From a virus: a DNA stretch of 38,813 nt. This document shows, piece by piece, positions 6,358 through 38,763 of this stretch. The translations under genes were made by a program, and so were the position numbers. Position 1 is the first letter of the stretch. Every line of letters begins with the position of its first letter. A model generated the notes under the pieces. The model had not been told where the DNA came from. It did not search any database and saw only the letters and a program-made list of their open reading frames with translations. The stretch lies in UHGV virus genome UHGV-0123627. One strand, given 5' to 3'.

Positions 6358-6490
6358 TTTTTGGGACTCCTGGCTGATTAAGTATGTCGATAAGGCGTTT
6401 CCATCCGTCACGTAATTTACGGGTGATTCGTTCAAGTAAAGATTCGGAAGGGCAGCCAGCAACAGGCCACCCTGCAATGGCATATTGCAT
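6326..6490 (-). CDS. cIII: cIII (FtsH inhibitor, stabilises CII)
   Basis: Manual translation gives the 54-aa [54 protein letters not shown], matching lambda CIII. Below the ORF-track size cutoff. Confidence 0.85.
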   Translation of the reverse strand: MQYAIAGWPVAGCPSESLLERITRKLRDGWKRLIDILNQPGVPKNGSNTYGYPD

Positions 6491-6562
6491 GGTGTGCTCC
6501 TTATTTATACATAACGAAAAACGCCTCGAGTGAAGCGTTATTGGTATGCGGTAACGCCGCGC

Positions 6563-10180: not shown

Positions 10181-10988
10181 GTTAGTTGATTACAGGCCTC
10201 AACTGGAGGTCGTGGAGCATCGCGTGGCAGATACCGAAGATGGTTTCATGCGCGTTGCTAACGAGATTACCGACGGTCTGCTGATGGCTGATTTAACCGT
10301 CCGGCAGTTGAAGGTGATGCTCGCTATCATGCGCAAGACATACGGATTCAATAAGCCGATGGATCGACTCACAAACACGCAGATAGCAGCCATGACAGGT
10401 ATTCATCACACTCATGTTTGCGCTGCCAAGCGCCAGCTTATTGAGCGTAAATTCCTCATTGCTGATGGCGTGAAAATCGGAGTGAACAAGGTGGTTTCGC
10501 AGTGGATTAGCCAGGACAGCTTAACATTAGCTAAAACAGCTAATAAAACATTAGCCAAGTCGGCTAATGGGTATAAGCCAAGTCAGCTAAACACAAAAGA
10601 CAATATACAAAAGACAATAAATACAAATACCCCCTTACCCCCTAACGGGGGCGGTGATGGGCAGGTTAAACCTGAACGTCGCAAGGCAGAACGAATCGAC
10701 TACGAATCCTTCCTGAACGCCTACAACACCGAAGTCGGTGACAGACTGCCACACGCTGTTGCGGTCAACGAGAAACGCAAACGCCGCCTGAAGAAAATCA
10801 TCCCGCAACTGAAAACGCCAAACGTGGACGGTTTCAGAGCGTATGTCAGGGCGTTTGTGCATCAGGCCAAGCCGTTTTACTTCGGAGACAACGACACGGG
10901 CTGGACGGCCGATTTTGATTACCTGCTGAGGGAAGACTCGTTAACGGGGGTACGGGAAGGGAAGTTTGCAGACAGGGGGATTGCATGA
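10167..10988 (+). CDS. Replication initiator, O-like (P22 gp18 analogue)
   Basis: 273-aa ORF; N-terminal region (...[30 protein letters not shown]) parallels the lambda O N-domain; iterons lie inside the gene; followed by a DnaB-type helicase as in P22. Confidence 0.8.
10506..10630. repeat. Candidate origin: four about 17-bp iterons plus AT-rich tract inside the O-like gene
   Basis: TTAGCCAGGACAGCTTAA, TTAGCTAAAACAGCTAA, TTAGCCAAGTCGGCTAA, TAAGCCAAGTCAGCTAA at about 20-24 bp spacing, then AAACACAAAAGACAATATACAAAAGACAATAAATACAAATA. Confidence 0.55.
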
Positions 10989-12361
10989 AACAGGATATCG
11001 AAGCGAGCGTTATCGGTGGCCTGCTGATTGGTGGATTAACACCAACCGCCAGCGACGTTCTGGCAACGCTGGAGCCGGAAGCGTTTTCAATTCCGCTCTA
11101 CCGGAAAGCCTTCGAGGTTATCCGCAAGCAGGCGAGAAACAGAAACCTAATCGACGCGCTGATGGTTGCTGAGGCGTGCGGAGAGGAGCATTTCACGTCA
11201 ATCCTGATGACCAGTAAGAACTGCCCGAGTGCCGCAAACCTGAAGGGATACGCCGGAATGGTCGCGGATAACTATCACCGCCGTCTGGTGCTGGAAATCA
11301 TGGATGAAATGCGTGAACCAATTCAGAGCGGAACCATCGATACATCGAGTCAGGCGATGGACGAGCTTGTAAAGCGTCTCTCATCCATCAGAAAGCCCCG
11401 TGACGAGGTTAAACCTGTACGGTTAGGGGAAATCATCACTGACTACACTGACACGCTTGACAGGCGTCTGAGGAACGGAGAAGAGTCAGATACCATGAAG
11501 ACCGGAATCGAAGAACTTGACGCCATCACCGGAGGGATGAACGCAGAAGACCTGGTGATAATCGCTGCTCGTCCTGGTATGGGGAAAACCGAGCTGGCGC
11601 TGAAGATTGCCGAAGGCGTTGCAAGCCGCGTTATTCCTGGTTCTGACGTCCGGCGCGGAGTGTTGATTTTCTCGATGGAAATGAGCGCATTGCAGATTGC
11701 AGAGCGAAGCATTGCCAACGCCGGGAGGATGTCGGTTAGCGTGCTGCGAAATCCTGCATCGATGGATGACGAAGGCTGGGCGCGCGTTGCTAACGGCATG
11801 AGTCAGCTTGCAGATTTGGATGTATGGGTAGTCGATGCCTCGCGGTTATCGGTCGAAGAAATACGCTCAATCGCAGAACGGCACAAACAGGAAAATCCAA
11901 ACCTGTCACTCATCATGGTGGATTATCTTGGTCTGATTGAGAAGCCGAAAGCAGACCGCAACGACCTCGCAATTGCTCACATCTCCGGAAGCCTGAAGGC
12001 GATGGCGAAAGACCTGAAAACGCCCGTTATCTCCCTGAGTCAGCTTTCGCGCGATGTTGAGAAGCGACCAAACAAACGCCCGACAAACGCAGATTTGCGT
12101 GATTCAGGAAGCATTGAACAGGACGCAGACTCAATCATCATGCTCTATCGGGAAGCGGTATATGACGAGAACAGTAGCGCCGCGCCATTTGCTGAAATCA
12201 TTGTGACGAAAAACCGTTTTGGCTCGCTTGGTACGGTTTACCAGCGGTTCTGTAACGGACACTTTGTTGCATGTGACCAGGATGAAGCCAGACAGATTTG
12301 CACAGCATCAAATGCACCTGCTGCGCGTGGCAGACGATATGCACAAGGGGCTGACGTATGA
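10985..12361 (+). CDS. Replicative DNA helicase, DnaB family (P22 gp12-like)
   Basis: 458-aa ORF with Walker A ARPGMGKT and DnaB-like C-terminal domain motifs. Confidence 0.9.
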
Positions 12362-12386
12362 CCATCTACATTACTGAGCTAATAAC

Positions 12387-12419
12387 AGGCCTGCTGGTAA
12401 TCGCAGGCCTTTTTATTTG
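12387..12419 (+). terminator. Intrinsic terminator (tR2-like position, upstream of ninB)
   Basis: AGGCCTGC-TGGTAATC-GCAGGCCT followed by TTTTTATTT. Confidence 0.55.
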
Positions 12420-12434
12420 GGGGAGAGGGAAGTC

Positions 12435-12875
12435 ATGAAAAAACTAACCTTTGAAATTCGATCTCCAGCACATCAGCAAAACGCTATTCACGCAGTACAG
12501 CAAATCCTTCCAGACCCAACCAAACCAATCGTAGTAACCATTCAGGAACGCAACCGCAGCTTAGACCAAAACAGGAAGCTATGGGCCTGCTTAGGTGACG
12601 TCTCTCGTCAGGTTGAATGGCATGGTCGCTGGCTGGATGCAGAAAGCTGGAAGTGTGTGTTTACCGCAGCCTTAAAGCAGCAGGACGTTGTTCCTAACCT
12701 TGCCGGGAATGGCTTTGTGGTAATAGGCCAGTCAACCAGCAGGATGCGTGTAGGCGAATTTGCGGAGCTATTAGAGCTTATACAGGCATTCGGTACAGAG
12801 CGTGGCGTTAAGTGGTCAGACGAAGCTCGACTGGCTCTGGAGTGGAAAGCAAGATGGGGAGACAGGGCGGCATGA
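12435..12875 (+). CDS. ninB: NinB (Orf recombination mediator)
   Basis: [66 protein letters not shown]... matches lambda NinB. Confidence 0.9.
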
Positions 12876-13048
12876 GACGACAGCGACGAAGCATCACCGA
12901 CATAATCTGCGAAAACTGCAAATACCTTCCAACGAAACGCTCCAGAAATAAACGCAAGCCAATCCCAAAAGAATCTGACGTAAAAACCTTCAACTACACG
13001 GCTCACCTGTGGGATATCCGGTGGCTAAGACATCGTGCGAGGAAATGA
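12872..13048 (+). CDS. ninE: NinE-family small protein
   Basis: 58-aa [58 protein letters not shown]; start overlaps the ninB stop (ATGA). The ninD versus ninE naming is from memory. Confidence 0.65.
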
Positions 13049-13434
13049 CAATGGATTATTCACAGTTAAGTGATTTTGAAATTAACGTGGCGGTATTCGA
13101 AGCCATTCATAACGGATCACCGGATTACAAAGAAGGTGAGAATGGCGATATGGTGTTTGTCTCATTTGAGGGAGACATTGTAAACGGAGACGCAGTTGAA
13201 GTAGAAGTTGAGCGCGGATCCTTTAACCCATGCGTAAACCCAGCAGACGCATGGCCGATTATCACTGAAAACAACATCAGCATAATTTTAGACAATCCCT
13301 CAATGCCGTGCGCTACAGACAACGCAAGGGACTTGTTTGATGATGCCGGACCGAATGTTGGTGTTGCATATGACAATCCACTCCGTGCTGCCATGATTGT
13401 CTTTCTCATGATGCAGGACGCCAATAATGCTTAG
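13045..13434 (+). CDS. Hypothetical nin-region protein (about 128 aa)
   Basis: ATG overlapping the ninE stop (alternative ATG at 13051 with better SD spacing); acidic protein with no confident family assignment. Confidence 0.5.
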
Positions 13435-13603
13435 CCCATCCCAATCCCTCCAATACCAGAAAGAAAGCGTCGAGCGGGCTTTAACGTGCGCTAAATGCGG
13501 TCAGAAGCTGCATGTGCTGGAAGTTCACGTGTGTGAGCACTGCTGCGCAGAGCTGATGAGCGATCCGAATAGCTCAATGTACGAGGAAGAAGACGATGAG
13601 TGA
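13427..13603 (+). CDS. ninF: NinF-like small Cys-rich protein
   Basis: 58-aa [58 protein letters not shown] from manual translation; resembles lambda NinF. Confidence 0.7.
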   Translation: MLSPSQSLQYQKESVERALTCAKCGQKLHVLEVHVCEHCCAELMSDPNSSMYEEEDDE

Positions 13604-13865
13604 TTTCTCTGAGCTTATTTCCTTCAAAAAAGACAGAGAAGAAATGCGGACTGAATCTGTCTATTACGTTCAACACCGGAATAAACGCTCTGTACTTGAT
13701 CAGGAGCTGGTTATTACCGGAGACCTGGCATTCAGAACATATAAGGCCAGCATGGAAATGAAGGATTTCCCTAAATGTGGTTCTGAAAGAGAAGCCGCGT
13801 TAAAGCTGGCAGAGTGGATGCAGAGAATGGCTGCTGCAATTGAGAATTACTGGAGCGAACCATAA
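13596..13865 (+). CDS. Hypothetical nin-region protein (89 aa)
   Basis: ATG with GAGGAAG upstream, overlapping the ninF end; [36 protein letters not shown]... Confidence 0.5.
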
Positions 13866-14476
13866 TGGCTAAACCAGCGCGAAGACGATGTAAAAACGAT
13901 GAATGTCGGGAATGGTTTCACCCTGCATTCGCTAATCAGTGGTGGTGCTCTCCAGAGTGTGGAACAAAGATAGCACTCGAACGACGAAGCAAAGAACGCG
14001 AAAAAGCGGAAAAAGCAGCAGAGAAGAAACGACGACGAGAGGAGCAGAAACAGAAAGATAAACTGAAGATTCGAAAACTCGCCTTAAAGCCCCGCAGTTA
14101 CTGGATTAAACAAGCCCAGCAAGCCGTAAACGCCTTCATCAGAGAAAGAGACCGCGACTTACCATGTATCTCGTGCGGAACGCTCACGTCTGCTCAGTGG
14201 GATGCCGGACATTACCGGACAACTGCTGCGGCACCTCAACTCCGATTTGATGAACGCAATATTCACAAGCAATGCGTGGTGTGCAACCAGCATAAAAGCG
14301 GAAATCTCGTTCCGTATCGCGTCGAACTGATTAATCGCATAGGGCAGGAAGCAGTAGACGAAATCGAATCAAACCATAGCCGCCATCGCTGGACTATCGA
14401 AGAGTGCAAGGCGATCAAGGCAGAGTACCAACAGAAACTCAAAGACCTGCGAAATAGCAGAAGTGAGGCCGCATGA
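13865..14476 (+). CDS. ninG: NinG (Rap recombination-promoting endonuclease)
   Basis: 203-aa ORF with Cys-rich N-terminus and length and position matching lambda NinG. Confidence 0.9.
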
Positions 14477-14679
14477 CGTTCTCAGTAAAAACCATTCCAG
14501 ACATGCTCGTTGAAGCATACGGAAACCAGACAGAAGTAGCACGCAGACTGAAATGTAGTCGCGGTACGGTCAGAAAATACGTTGATGATAAAGACGGGAA
14601 AATGCACGCCATCGTCAACGACGTTCTCATGGTTCATCGCGGATGGAGTGAAAGAGATGCGCTATTACGAAAAAATTGA
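14473..14679 (+). CDS. ninH: NinH
   Basis: 68-aa [68 protein letters not shown] matches lambda NinH. Confidence 0.85.
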
Positions 14680-15328
14680 TGGCAGCAAATACCGAAATAT
14701 TTGGGTAGTTGGCGATCTGCACGGATGCTACACGAACCTGATGAAAAAACTGGAGACGATGGGATTCGACACCAAAAAAGACCTGCTTATCTCGGTTGGC
14801 GATTTGGTCGATCGCGGTACAGAGAACGTCGAATGTCTGGAATTAATCACATTCCCCTGGTTCCGAGCTGTACGTGGAAACCATGAGCAAATGATGATTG
14901 ATGGCTTATCAGAGCGTGGAAACGTCAATCACTGGCTGTTTAATGGCGGTGGCTGGTTCTTTAATCTCGATTACGACAAAGAAATTCTGGCTAAAGCTCT
15001 TGCCCATAAAGCAGATGAACTTCCGTTAATCATCGAACTGGTGAGCGAAGGTAAAAAATATGTCATCTGCCACGCCGATTATCCTTGTGACGAATACGAA
15101 TTTGGAAAGCCAGTTGATCATCAGCAGGTAATCTGGAACCGCGAACGAATCAGCAACTCACAAGACGGGATCGTGAAAGAAATCAAAGGAGCTGACACGT
15201 TCATCTTTGGTCATACGCCAGCAGTGAAACCACTCAAGTTTGCCAACCAGATGTATATCGATACCGGCGCAGTGTTCTGCGGAAACCTCACATTGATTCA
15301 GGTACAGGGAGAAGGCGCGTGGGCATAA
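14657..15328 (+). CDS. ninI: NinI Ser/Thr protein phosphatase
   Basis: [29 protein letters not shown]...GNHE... metallophosphatase motifs; matches the lambda phosphatase. Confidence 0.9.
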
Positions 15329-15837
15329 GAGAACTAAACCTCACCAAAGAGCAGCACGAGTGGCTGAATGGCTGGCTTGAACTGTGGGGCGCATGGGTTT
15401 ATTCAGGTCGTCTGGAAAAGCGCATGAGCAGCGTAATAGCGAAGTTCATGGAGAGCGTAGAGCCGGGAAGAGTTATGACAAGGCCAATGTGCAATGATGA
15501 TGATGGAATGTTGATTTCTCAGGTCGTCGATTCCGTCATGTACATTGACAAAAAAGCCTTTGGCATCCTCCTCAGCTACTACGCTCATGGTTCATCTAAG
15601 CGAGCAATTGCATCCTACTATCACGCGACTGCAAAGCCACGCAAGATGTGTGGACGTGGTGGCGAGGGATGGAGAAAACCTTCACTGGCAACCTGTAGAA
15701 ACGAAATTGACGACATCCTGAAAGCGTCATTATTTGTTTTGTACCAACCAATGCAAAATGCTTTCAAAATGCGTAAACGTGTTGAGAAAGTTAAGCATGT
15801 TGCTGTTAAAAACCTTGACATGCAATTAGCCATTTAG
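15319..15837 (+). CDS. Late-gene antiterminator Q (non-lambda, QuuD/phage 82-like family)
   Basis: 172-aa ORF directly after ninI; the ...[12 protein letters not shown]... and ...[14 protein letters not shown]...YYAHG... segments resemble the ERWGAW / CDDD motifs of QuuD-type Q proteins as remembered. Not lambda Q. Confidence 0.65.
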
Positions 15838-15844
15838 CTATAAT
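15815..15844 (+). promoter_or_regulatory. Candidate late promoter pR'
   Basis: TTGACA (about 15815-15820), 18-bp spacer, TATAAT (about 15839-15844); the -35 lies in the last codons of Q. Confidence 0.5.
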
Positions 15845-15854
15845 TAGAGGGTAA

Positions 15855-15897
15855 GCTGCCGTTAGTGACTCTTAAGTTGCAACGGTGGCTTTTTTTA
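15855..15897 (+). terminator. Candidate tR' terminator
   Basis: GCTGCCGTT ... AACGGTGGC hairpin (two G-U pairs, long loop) followed by TTTTTTTATTT. Confidence 0.4.
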
Positions 15898-15900
15898 TTT

Positions 15901-15975
15901 GGGTCAGTCGTATAAAGGTCATTACGGAAGGCTGTTAACCTTCTTATCGTGGTTCGAGTCCACGCTGTCCCGCCA
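15901..15975 (+). tRNA. tRNA-like gene, anticodon GTT (Asn) by manual fold
   Basis: Hand-folded cloverleaf: T-arm CGTGG-TTCGAGT-CCACG, anticodon arm GAAGG-CTGTTAA-CCTTC, 3' end GCCA; the acceptor stem has one T-T mismatch and the D stem is 3 bp. Confidence 0.5.
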
Positions 15976-15980
15976 AATAT

Positions 15981-16056
15981 GCTGGTTTAGCTCCAATGGT
16001 AGAGCAGTCGCCTTGTAAGCGAATGGGTAGCGGTTCAAGTCCGTTAACCAGCACCA
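15981..16056 (+). tRNA. tRNA gene, anticodon TGT (Thr) by manual fold
   Basis: Perfect 7-bp acceptor stem GCTGGTT/AACCAGC, D-arm GCTC/GAGC, T-loop TTCAAGT, encoded CCA end; anticodon loop CTTGTAA. Confidence 0.7.
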
Positions 16057-36027: not shown

Positions 36028-37488
36028 TTATTTACATAAAGAATCATCAAAACTCACCATTACATTCTCATTATCACGATAAATTTTAATATCATTAGAT
36101 GAATAAATTAGTGTTGATTTACAATAGTCCTTCATGAACATAGATACTTCTTTACTGGAAAAATCAGGATAATTTTGATTTACTCCTCTAATCTTGAGGT
36201 ATACATGAGAGCCATACCAGTTATAGAAGTAGTCGAGTACTATTGTTTTGAATAGTGGATAATTTAATTCTGAATTAAGTAGTATAGGGGATTTTGGTGA
36301 ACTACCATTAAACATAACATTAACACTATTTTCGGGTATGTTTTTTAACGCTAGCCCAATAATTTCAGCAATGTATTTATTTTTATCATCTTGTGCTCGC
36401 AAAGCATTTCCATATGAATAAAAAAGAGTAATTATATAAAAAAGGAATATTAAAAATATACCGTTGACAATTCTTGTGTTATTTATTCCCAAATATAAAA
36501 GGGTGAAGATGAATAAAAAAAGACCATTAAACCCAATATAAACCCTTGCAAAAGTTGTTAGAGTGTTTTCAAGGAGAAGTAATGAAATCATTGATGATAT
36601 AAAAGTCAAAGGTAATGATAACACTGCCATCAAAGATAAAAAAACAGCAGCATTACACTTGTGTTTTTTAATGTAAACAAAAACCAATTTAATGGCAAAT
36701 GCAAATGATACAATAAAACTACCAATTAATAATTCACTCCCATGCTCAGGGATTATATTTCTAGTGTAGAAATCATAATACGCAATAAAGTTCTTATGAA
36801 TTACATCTATAATATTTGTGGCAACTCCTGGGTGATTTTGACTATTGTCATTAACATGAGTTAACGGCAGTACAACCCTCATATAGATAACAGCGCCAAC
36901 CAATACTTCGATAATTCGAAATGCAATTGACTTTATTATGTGTGTTGGCTCTTTATTATTCTTTATGTTAACAAACATTTCTATAGAGATTAATATAAAA
37001 ACTATATTAATAGATGCTTGGTAAAATGAAAATAAGATAACTATAAAGCTAGAATGTAAAATAAATGAAATTACCGTGTTTTTATAGTTTAGACAAATAA
37101 ATGCAAATGCAAAAAATATCGAAGCTGAGATGGTTAAGCTATCAAACCTGTATGATAGAGGTTCGATTATAAATGGACTTAATAAAAATGACAACGGTAA
37201 AAAAAGATAATGATTATCTGAATTAAATAATTTAATGTGAAATAGATAAAATGAAATAGACAATAGCAAACATGCTATTATTAGAGGCAATGGAGCCAAG
37301 TCAGTTAGATGATTGTTAAAATTAAGAATAATCATTAATCTATCTGATAATGGTCTACCATCAATTCCCCAATAAGTTACGCCGCTCATTGCTCTGCTCA
37401 TATCATCGCTGTAGTAAACATTTGCAATTATAATTGGGAGCGCAAGTAAGAATGTGATAAATAAGTAAATCTTAATGTTATTTTTCAT
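36028..37488 (-). CDS. Serotype-specific O-antigen glucosyltransferase (GtrC-type polytopic membrane protein)
   Basis: 486-aa very hydrophobic multi-TM protein in AT-rich DNA, directly downstream of gtrB in the same operon. Confidence 0.75.
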
Positions 37489-38404
37489 TTTTAGAACTCT
37501 TTAAAAGATATTTCGGCCTTTGCTTTGTTTCAATATAAATTCGTCCAATGTACTCACCAAGAACACCAATACCAATGAGTTGGATACCACCAAGGAAAAG
37601 TATAGATACTAGCAGGGATGGATAACCTCTAACCGGGTTTCCAAACGCCAGAGTGTCCAGAATCATCCATGCGCCATATGTAAATGCTAAGCCAGCGACG
37701 AGAAGGCCGATGTAAGTCCACATACGTAGCGGAAAAGTCGAGAAGCTCGTAATTCCCTCAAGAGCAAGATTCCACAACTTCCATCCGTTGAACTTGGTAC
37801 TGCCAGCAACACGTTCTGCGCGGGCATAATCAACGATATCAGTGCGACCACCAACCCAACTCAAAACACCCTTCATGAAAAGGTTGCGTTCTGGCATGAG
37901 CTTAATGTTCTCTACGACTTCACGAGACATCAGACGGAAATCACCAACATTTTCCTCGATCTGCGGATTGCTGATTTTATTGTGAAGCTTATAGAACCAC
38001 TCGGCGGTTTTCCTCTTCAGTCTGCCATCCGTTGAGCGGTCAGATCGTTTAGCAAGCACCATATCAGCACCTGCCTGCCACTTTTCAATAAGATGAGGAA
38101 TAACCTCAATCGGGTCTTGCAGGTCAACATCAATTGGAATCACGGCATCGCCAGTTGCATGGTCTAACCCTGCAAACAATGCTGGTTCTTTACCAAAGTT
38201 GCGTGTAAATGACAGCGGAACAACTAGCGGATCATAAACAGCCAGAGCGTTAATGATTGACTCCGTAGAGTCTTTGCTACCATCATTTATAAAAACAATT
38301 TCTACTTCATATGGCTTCAACTCTTCGAATTCACGTACCGTTTTATAAAAAATTGGTATCGCTTCTTCTTCATTGAAGACAGGAACTACAAGAGATATCT
38401 TCAT
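37478..38404 (-). CDS. gtrB: Bactoprenol glucosyltransferase GtrB (GT2 family)
   Basis: 308-aa [47 protein letters not shown]... with two C-terminal TM segments. Confidence 0.95.
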
Positions 38405-38763
38405 TTCGCATCCCTAAAGACAATGAACTTTGAATAGACGAAACCGCACACCAGGCTGATGGCGGAGAAAGTGATAAGGGTGACCATCGGGGGAAGGGCG
38501 CATCTATCAGCAGCCCACCCGACGACAACACTCAATGTTCCCATGAATCCCACGTATAACAAGTAACGCATCGTTGTAGTCGATGCCTTGAATGTGAATT
38601 TTGCATTCGCGAAGAAGCTAAAACTCACAGCCACAACGAAACCTGCGAAGTTTGCAAGAGCTTGGTTTGTATGCGCGGCATAGATACAAACACCAAAAAC
38701 CACCCAGTGTATAAGGGTGTTCAGCACACCAATCGAGGTGTACTTTGCAAATAGCTTTAACAT
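38401..38763 (-). CDS. gtrA: GtrA flippase-like small membrane protein
   Basis: 120-aa four-TM protein [31 protein letters not shown]... ending in ...FIVFRDAK; first gene of the gtr operon. Confidence 0.9.

Follow-up and report, generated by a model that had tools for sequence, protein, structure and literature searches.

A routine accessory-region variant in the nin region of a lambdoid prophage, with a predicted ninX and a phage N15 gp44-like gene flanking ninF

The nin region of lambdoid phages is a delayed-early, non-essential region bounded by the replication genes and Q, past a tR2-type terminator and on the strand of the PR operon. Its genes are drawn from a pool of 30 to 50; a single phage has about 10 of them, and under laboratory conditions they are non-essential (PMC5630979). 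In P22 the region reads ninA-B-D-E-X-F-G-Y-H-Z; ninX is one of these ten genes, and nin genes are known to be packed with ATGA overlaps (PMC8022706). The order ninE-ninX-ninF-ninG is also found in the gene table of the P22-type phage UAB_Phi20 (PMC4837284).

The window analysed in this study is the whole 38,813-nt stretch of UHGV-0123627. It contains a complete lambdoid prophage, and positions 12872-13865 lie inside the delayed-early right operon of this prophage. Its early genes are lambda/434-like and its virion genes Sf6/P22-like, which makes it a hybrid; the full virion set is present, including a P22-type tailspike head-binding domain, and the prophage is intact and probably inducible. 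The segment of interest has the position of a nin region, between the replication genes and Q, past a tR2-type terminator and on the strand of the PR operon (Table 1). The terminator falls within a block that matches lambda (12358-12875, 98.8% identity), and the DNA around it is 98.7% identical to an Sf6 segment annotated as tR2. The gene order is ninB-ninE-ninX-ninF-orf89-ninG-ninH-ninI-Q, and downstream of Q follow tRNA-Asn and tRNA-Thr and then the lysis genes. The start listed for the ninI-type phosphatase agrees with the PGAP coordinates mapped from the E. coli genome CP182378.

Table 1. Features of the prophage in and around the nin region (window coordinates)
Feature	Position	Strand	Basis or remark
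Lambda-type integrase	50-1120	minus	Pfam
DnaB-type helicase ORF	10985-12361		ORF list
tR2-like intrinsic terminator, upstream of ninB	12387-12410	+	Stem-loop and T run
ninB (Orf recombination mediator family)	12435-12875	+	Pfam NinB 2e-54; phrog_72
ninE, 58 aa	12872-13048	+	Pfam NinE 7e-44, end-to-end model match
Predicted ninX, 127 aa (129 aa from alternative start 13045)	13051-13434	+	PF10765; phrog_444
Hypervariable central segment of ninX, residues 76-108	13276-13374	+	Pairwise identity, 21 homologues
ninF, 58 aa, Cys-rich	13427-13603	+	Pfam NinF 2.1e-11; phrog_672 7.6e-37
orf89, N15 gp44-like hypothetical early protein	13596-13865	+	phrog_1258 4.7e-38
ninG (Rap junction endonuclease family), intact	13865-14476	+	Pfam NinG 9.4e-92
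ninH	14473-14679	+	Pfam Phage_NinH 2.4e-44
ninI-type Ser/Thr phosphatase	14657-15328	+	Pfam Metallophos 2.1e-16
Q antiterminator, closes the nin region	15319-15837	+	Pfam Phage_antitermQ 1.1e-25
Consensus promoter, 12/12, phage-21-type PR'	15815-15844		After Q
gtrA-gtrB-gtr(type-specific) O-antigen glucosylation cluster	36028-38763		

The genes are tightly packed with stop/start overlaps of the ATGA type, as is usual for nin regions. An ATGA joins ninB and ninE at 12872, and a second ATGA is present in the raw sequence at 13045. Overlaps of 8 nt were found between ninX and ninF (at 13427) and between ninF and orf89 (at 13596), and orf89 and ninG meet in a TAATG at 13863-13867. Two antisense ORFs (12608-13006 and 13125-13424) lie within conserved nin genes and are regarded as chance frames. 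Rfam and repeat scans of 12872-13865 returned no RNA elements and no meaningful repeat.

The nin DNA was compared by BLASTN with a fetched lambda segment (locus L006). Besides the block that holds the terminator, three further blocks match lambda, 12879-13045 with 97.6% identity, 13461-13598 with 95.7% and 13862-14800 with 98.1%. Lambda ninC and ninD, together 1012 bp at positions 1977-2988 of the lambda segment, find no match here, and with the stop codon of ninB overlapping the start codon of ninE there is no room for either gene. The interval 13046-13460, comprising ninX and the first 34 nt of ninF, stands in place of 33 bp of lambda. The interval 13599-13861, which corresponds to orf89, has no lambda counterpart and is inserted precisely where ninF and ninG overlap; at the protein level, a search through all phage records likewise revealed no lambda homologue of orf89. 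The original prediction, which had ninB followed directly by ninE without a ninC-like ORF and two ORFs around ninF for which lambda has no equivalent, is borne out on both points, with the addition that ninD, which it did not mention, is missing as well. Whether ninC and ninD are present is a variable feature of nin regions and not a defining one.

It is highly improbable that ninC and ninD were lost through recent deletion as this one prophage decayed, and that their absence was not inherited as a cassette arrangement. Prophages often decay, and the flanks are 98-99% identical to those of lambda, which has ninC-ninD. On the other hand, the ATGA junction is clean, NinE is intact with a match to the full Pfam model, the other genes of the region are all intact and the window holds the full set of virion genes. 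In the viable phages mEp235 and HK225, too, ninB joins ninE directly and ninC is absent. In sister phages a methylase gene is located between ninB and ninE.

The 127-aa ORF is assigned to NinX by sequence, and every family feature that could be tested was found. It scores 60.8 bits against PF10765 (Phage_P22_NinX, formerly DUF2591), for which the gathering cut-off is 22.6, with residues 4-124 aligned to profile positions 1-114 of 114, and it matches phrog_444 end to end (1.7e-43). A tblastn search aligned 100% of the query to P22 NinX, an annotated ninX gene (AB362338), with an E value of 2e-16. The nearest alleles are those of coliphages JEP4 (99.2% identity, adjoining NinF) and HK446 (98%). 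NinX occurs in 633 phage records, P22 among them; the members from Vibrio and Klebsiella phages have 33-43% identity. Its homologues form 2236 clusters at 90%, many of them named NinX or DUF2591. The same ORF in E. coli CP182378 carries the PGAP annotation 'phage protein NinX family protein'. The position between ninE and ninF matches the P22 slot, and SPN9CC has the same arrangement. A GAGGAA motif lies 6 nt upstream of the ATG at 13051, a spacing that favours this start over 13045.

The predicted NinX protein is very acidic, with 23 Asp/Glu against 4 Lys/Arg and a pI of 4.05. Among 21 homologues picked by hand, residues 76-108 have a mean pairwise identity of 0.30, whereas the flanks on either side reach 0.91 and 0.94. 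An AlphaFold2 model calculated from a 21-sequence alignment was unusable (pLDDT 45.7), and sequence and profile searches of the PDB gave no significant solved relative. For NinX/DUF2591 the literature search retrieved genome descriptions only and no functional work.

The 89-aa ORF is by sequence a member of phrog_1258, a family of mEp235 gp51 / N15 gp44-like hypothetical early proteins, with residues 2-89 aligned to profile positions 9-97 of 97. Identical proteins are encoded by mEp235 (gp51, mEp235_051), ECP1 and phiv205-1, and proteins with 98-99% identity by vB_EcoP-611R6, SPN9CC (SPN9CC_0035, 98%) and a group of P22-like phages of Salmonella. The regions of mEp235 and SPN9CC were read, and in both the homologue comes right after ninF; in ECP1, phiv205-1 and vB_EcoP-611R6 the match to the 99-100% identical copy overlaps the annotated ninF. 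The more distant relatives, at 35-44% identity, include N15 gp44 (35%), phiKO2 gp43, HK225_059 and genes of P1-like phage-plasmids. The ORF is found in 148 of 5426 complete E. coli genomes, where its annotation is always 'hypothetical protein'. A search for its locus tags and accessions in the literature led to genome descriptions only and to no functional work.

The AlphaFold2 model of the orf89 protein (pLDDT 79.6) has four antiparallel beta strands followed by a C-terminal helix at residues 64-87. Conservation within the family is strongest in the motif that maps to this helix, FP...S-E-x-E-A-A-L-K-L-A-E/D-W-x-x-R-L/M, which is invariant in close homologues. Among 53 distant members Trp-74 is invariant, and Gln-36, Phe-58, Lys-70, Leu-71 and Arg-77 are conserved in at least 90%. 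Pfam, NCBIfam and PADLOC gave no significant match for orf89 itself; the NCBIfam model NF008256 was rejected with an E value of 0.016 and 15 bits against a cut-off of 236. When the 53 family members were scanned against Pfam, 52 distant relatives had no domain. The Rv2179c-like exonuclease match in one longer relative has nothing to do with the orf89 domain and most likely represents a fused or mis-called neighbour gene. Foldseek found no match to the model in the PDB at E<=0.001, the best being generic NTF2/cystatin-like sheets with E>=0.2, and sequence and profile searches of the PDB gave no significant solved relative. In BFVD the sole significant Foldseek match is an unnamed 92-residue viral protein, 30% identical, which most likely belongs to the same family.

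The description of both ORFs as unassigned in the original prediction, where the first was given as about 128 aa, is an overstatement, since the longer one corresponds to NinX of PF10765 in the P22 slot and the shorter one to the catalogued phrog_1258. The two checks that it had proposed were carried out. Profile searches placed NinX in PF10765 and phrog_444 and orf89 in phrog_1258, with no Pfam family for the latter, and the comparison with nin regions of other lambdoid phages located the ninX slot in the P22 type and the orf89 slot in mEp235 and SPN9CC. The prediction had further named a match of both proteins to well-known nin-region families with established roles as the outcome that would speak against it; the family matches were found, the established roles were not.

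Both ORFs are short and orf89 lacks a Pfam family, which could be taken to mean that one or both are open frames that arose by chance. This reading has next to no probability and is already refuted by the conservation pattern. The orf89 DNA differs from that of mEp235 at 5 nt, 4 of them third positions, and the protein is unchanged; relative to SPN9CC there are six nt differences and two conservative amino-acid changes. Searched exhaustively by profile, the orf89 family yielded 67 representative clusters, and NinX has the 2236 clusters given above. The orf89 model is confident, and the GAGGAA ribosome-binding (Shine-Dalgarno) motif is found upstream of orf89 as it is upstream of ninX. On the evidence of their sequences, ninX and orf89 are real protein-coding genes.

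The recurrence of the arrangement was assessed with a 1151-bp block. E. coli CP182378 has the whole block with 99.9% identity, ten genomes cover at least 80% of it, and fragments of it are present in 2229 of 5426 complete E. coli genomes. The phage collection contained no isolated phage with the exact combination ninE-ninX(allele)-ninF-orf89-ninG over at least 80% of the length, and this exact combination was seen only in E. coli prophages. The same cassettes recur in other phages beside different neighbours. Because the differences between lambda and the window start and end, by BLASTN, no more than a few bases from start or stop codons, and because the cassettes recur with other neighbours, the set probably arose by recombination between lambdoid phages and prophages at conserved gene-boundary sequences and not by a local rearrangement. 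Cassette mosaicism of this kind is usual in lambdoid nin regions.

The locus is very probably a standard cassette variant of the delayed-early, non-essential nin region of lambdoid prophages. The arrangement was already known and is a routine accessory-region variant, not a remodelled or new locus. The layout that the original prediction called remodelled is as it was described, but the reading was overstated, as the cassettes and the ninB-ninE junction occur in known phages.

In 12872-13865 only weak 9/12 promoter matches at background frequency were obtained and no terminator-like sites, and in the whole interval between the tR2-like terminator and Q there was no internal promoter above background and no terminator. 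Both ninX and orf89 lie on the same strand as the neighbouring nin genes. Established lambda biology together with the sequence suggests that the two genes would be transcribed from PR after N-mediated antitermination, with their translation coupled to that of the nin genes on either side.

Stx phages are known to carry cargo in the nin region downstream of Q. The mention of a known cargo site in the original prediction implies that ninX and orf89 could be moron-type cargo, genes for lysogenic conversion or defence that are expressed from the prophage to the benefit of the host. Their GC content (0.45 for ninX and 0.43 for orf89) is slightly below that of the adjacent nin genes (0.47-0.52; ninB 0.51, ninG 0.49), but the difference is small. 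Neither gene is flanked by a terminator or by a promoter above background, and both overlap the stop and start codons of their neighbours on the same strand. The proteins are too small and free of domains, and PADLOC had no matches for NinE, NinX or orf89. For NinF, PADLOC gave only weak zinc-ribbon-type matches to Cas12 C-termini (E ~0.01). Such cargo is very unlikely, and the locus does not behave like moron or defence cargo.

No catalytic signature was detected in NinX or orf89. Because of their size, composition and genomic company, the most likely reading, held with low confidence, is that the two products are small binding proteins and not enzymes. Like many genes of the region they might be dispensable and modulate DNA metabolism, the takeover of the host or counter-defence. 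No conserved partner gene was found near the distant orf89 homologues, the neighbours being Dam, NinB, NUDIX and unannotated genes (N15 gp43 and gp45); since these neighbours vary, guilt by association fails.

Of the roles just named, counter-defence was considered separately. As cargo of this kind, NinX and/or orf89 would bind and neutralise a host immunity protein, in the manner of anti-restriction or anti-abortive-infection factors, and their patchy distribution would reflect an arms race. The region is an accessory hotspot in which sister phages carry Dam-type methylase and HNH genes, NinX is strongly acidic, and its 33-residue hypervariable core sits between near-invariant ends. Furthermore, the nin regions of Sf101 and HK544 are identical except for a divergent ninX (PMC4159516), and unrelated temperate phages (N15, phiKO2, P1-like phage-plasmids and HK225) have scattered relatives of orf89 in their early regions. 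However, acidity and variability are not specific, the orf89 model has no structural likeness to known anti-defence proteins in the PDB or BFVD, and the literature search found no link, experimental or other. A counter-defence cargo is unlikely. A version of it that covers the families of one or both proteins is slightly less likely still; in it NinX would be an acidic scaffold whose 33-residue core is swapped to track variable host immunity proteins, and orf89 a beta-meander-plus-helix binder that has spread through early regions of lambdoid, N15-like and P1-like temperate phages.

With the preferred reading of a standard cassette variant, the arrangement is one more combination from the well-documented lambdoid nin gene pool and has little weight as a discovery. 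The NinX family, with its 633 phage records, and the N15 gp44-like family are nevertheless widespread, and an intact, probably inducible prophage carries both. The cassette-like hypervariable core of NinX offers a lead for screens of nin genes for counter-defence or host takeover.

Of the known systems, lambda shares with the locus ninB, ninE, ninF, ninG and ninH at 96-99% DNA identity, the tR2-like terminator upstream, the tight ATGA packing and Q downstream. In contrast to the window, lambda has ninC, which is PAPS-reductase-like, and ninD, whereas ninX and orf89 are present here and not in lambda, and Q is here of the phage 21/Sf6 type and is followed by the two tRNA genes. With P22 the locus shares ninX between ninE and ninF, its start overlapping or abutting ninE and its end overlapping ninF. 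The P22 protein has 112 aa and the one studied here 127 aa, with 44.5% identity in a full-length alignment. Of the P22 nin genes, ninA, ninD, ninY and ninZ are absent from the window phage, which has a ninI phosphatase, as do lambda and Sf6.

The orf89 slot has its counterpart in mEp235 and SPN9CC, where the homologue adjoins ninF with the same 8-nt overlap geometry. There the next genes are HK97 gp66-like and rusA, whereas here ninG follows, and mEp235 is without ninX. N15 gp44, phiKO2 gp43 and HK225_059 share 35-40% identity with orf89 over about 93% of its length and are likewise unannotated genes in early operons of temperate enterobacterial phages. Their surroundings differ, with gp44 of N15 located between gp43 and gp45, downstream of the late activator gp40, and HK225_059 located upstream of ninB.

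NinX, the 127-residue product of the gene between ninE and ninF, combines near-invariant ends with a hypervariable centre. Across 21 homologues, residues 1-75 have a mean pairwise identity of 0.91 and residues 109-122 one of 0.94, whereas the value for residues 76-108 (window 13276-13374) is 0.30; because these homologues were hand-picked for diversity, the contrast between ends and centre is not an unbiased estimate. Judged by eye, the central segment occurs in the 21 homologues as about six sequence types that are dissimilar to one another. An independent comparison of the Sf101 and HK544 nin regions found them to be identical except for ninX, the sole divergent gene (43%) (PMC4159516). The variable centre could have been caused by intragenic cassette exchange or by diversifying selection.

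The family of orf89, the 89-residue reading frame between ninF and ninG, is common to lambdoid nin regions, linear-plasmid prophages, and P1-like phage-plasmids. Besides the relatives in N15 and HK225 (see table), members are present in the linear-plasmid prophage phiKO2 (gp43) and in the P1-like phage-plasmids RCS47 and SJ46. The neighbours of the gene are different in each phage type compared, and the family therefore moves among very different temperate phage types as a single-gene cassette. One database homologue of orf89, P0021, starts with an N-terminal peptide derived from an overlapping +1-frame ORF and then continues in the orf89 frame. The most likely explanation of this switch is a frameshift caused by a sequencing error in a contig assembled from reads, rather than a genuine variant.

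Coordinates of the features in the window and of orf89 relatives in the fetched loci
Feature	Location	Strand	Length	Remark
cIII thermoregulator RNA (lambda)	6445-6503	-		in lambda/434-like part
+1-frame ORF within orf89	13600-13761			overlaps orf89
Sigma-70 promoter	15815-15844			12/12 consensus; overlaps Q end
tRNA-Asn(GTT)	15901-15975			after promoter
tRNA-Thr(TGT)	15981-16056			after tRNA-Asn(GTT)
GtrA	within 36028-38763	-	120 aa	
GtrB	within 36028-38763	-	308 aa	family-2 glycosyltransferase
GtrII-type glucosyltransferase	within 36028-38763	-	486 aa	
orf89 relative in N15	L003, 3447-3755			gp44, linear-plasmid prophage
orf89 relative in HK225	L004, 3432-3767			

As a whole, the window (1-38813) has the appearance of a complete prophage of hybrid make-up. 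Its integrase, early left arm, nin region, and part of its lysis region form a lambda/434-like portion, to which a DnaB-type helicase and virion genes like those of Sf6 are joined. Of the first 25 kb, about 38-44% matches lambda or 434 at 98% identity. At the prophage end, a cluster of three genes for O-antigen glucosylation (serotype conversion) adjoins the tailspike. The region that starts within the end of the Q antiterminator gene (15815-16056) is a late leader of the phage-21/Sf6 type with two tRNAs. Homology to Sf6 breaks inside ninG, at 13963-13965. In Sf6, ninG is interrupted by IS911 at the matching point, whereas the ninG of the window is uninterrupted and encodes 203 residues.
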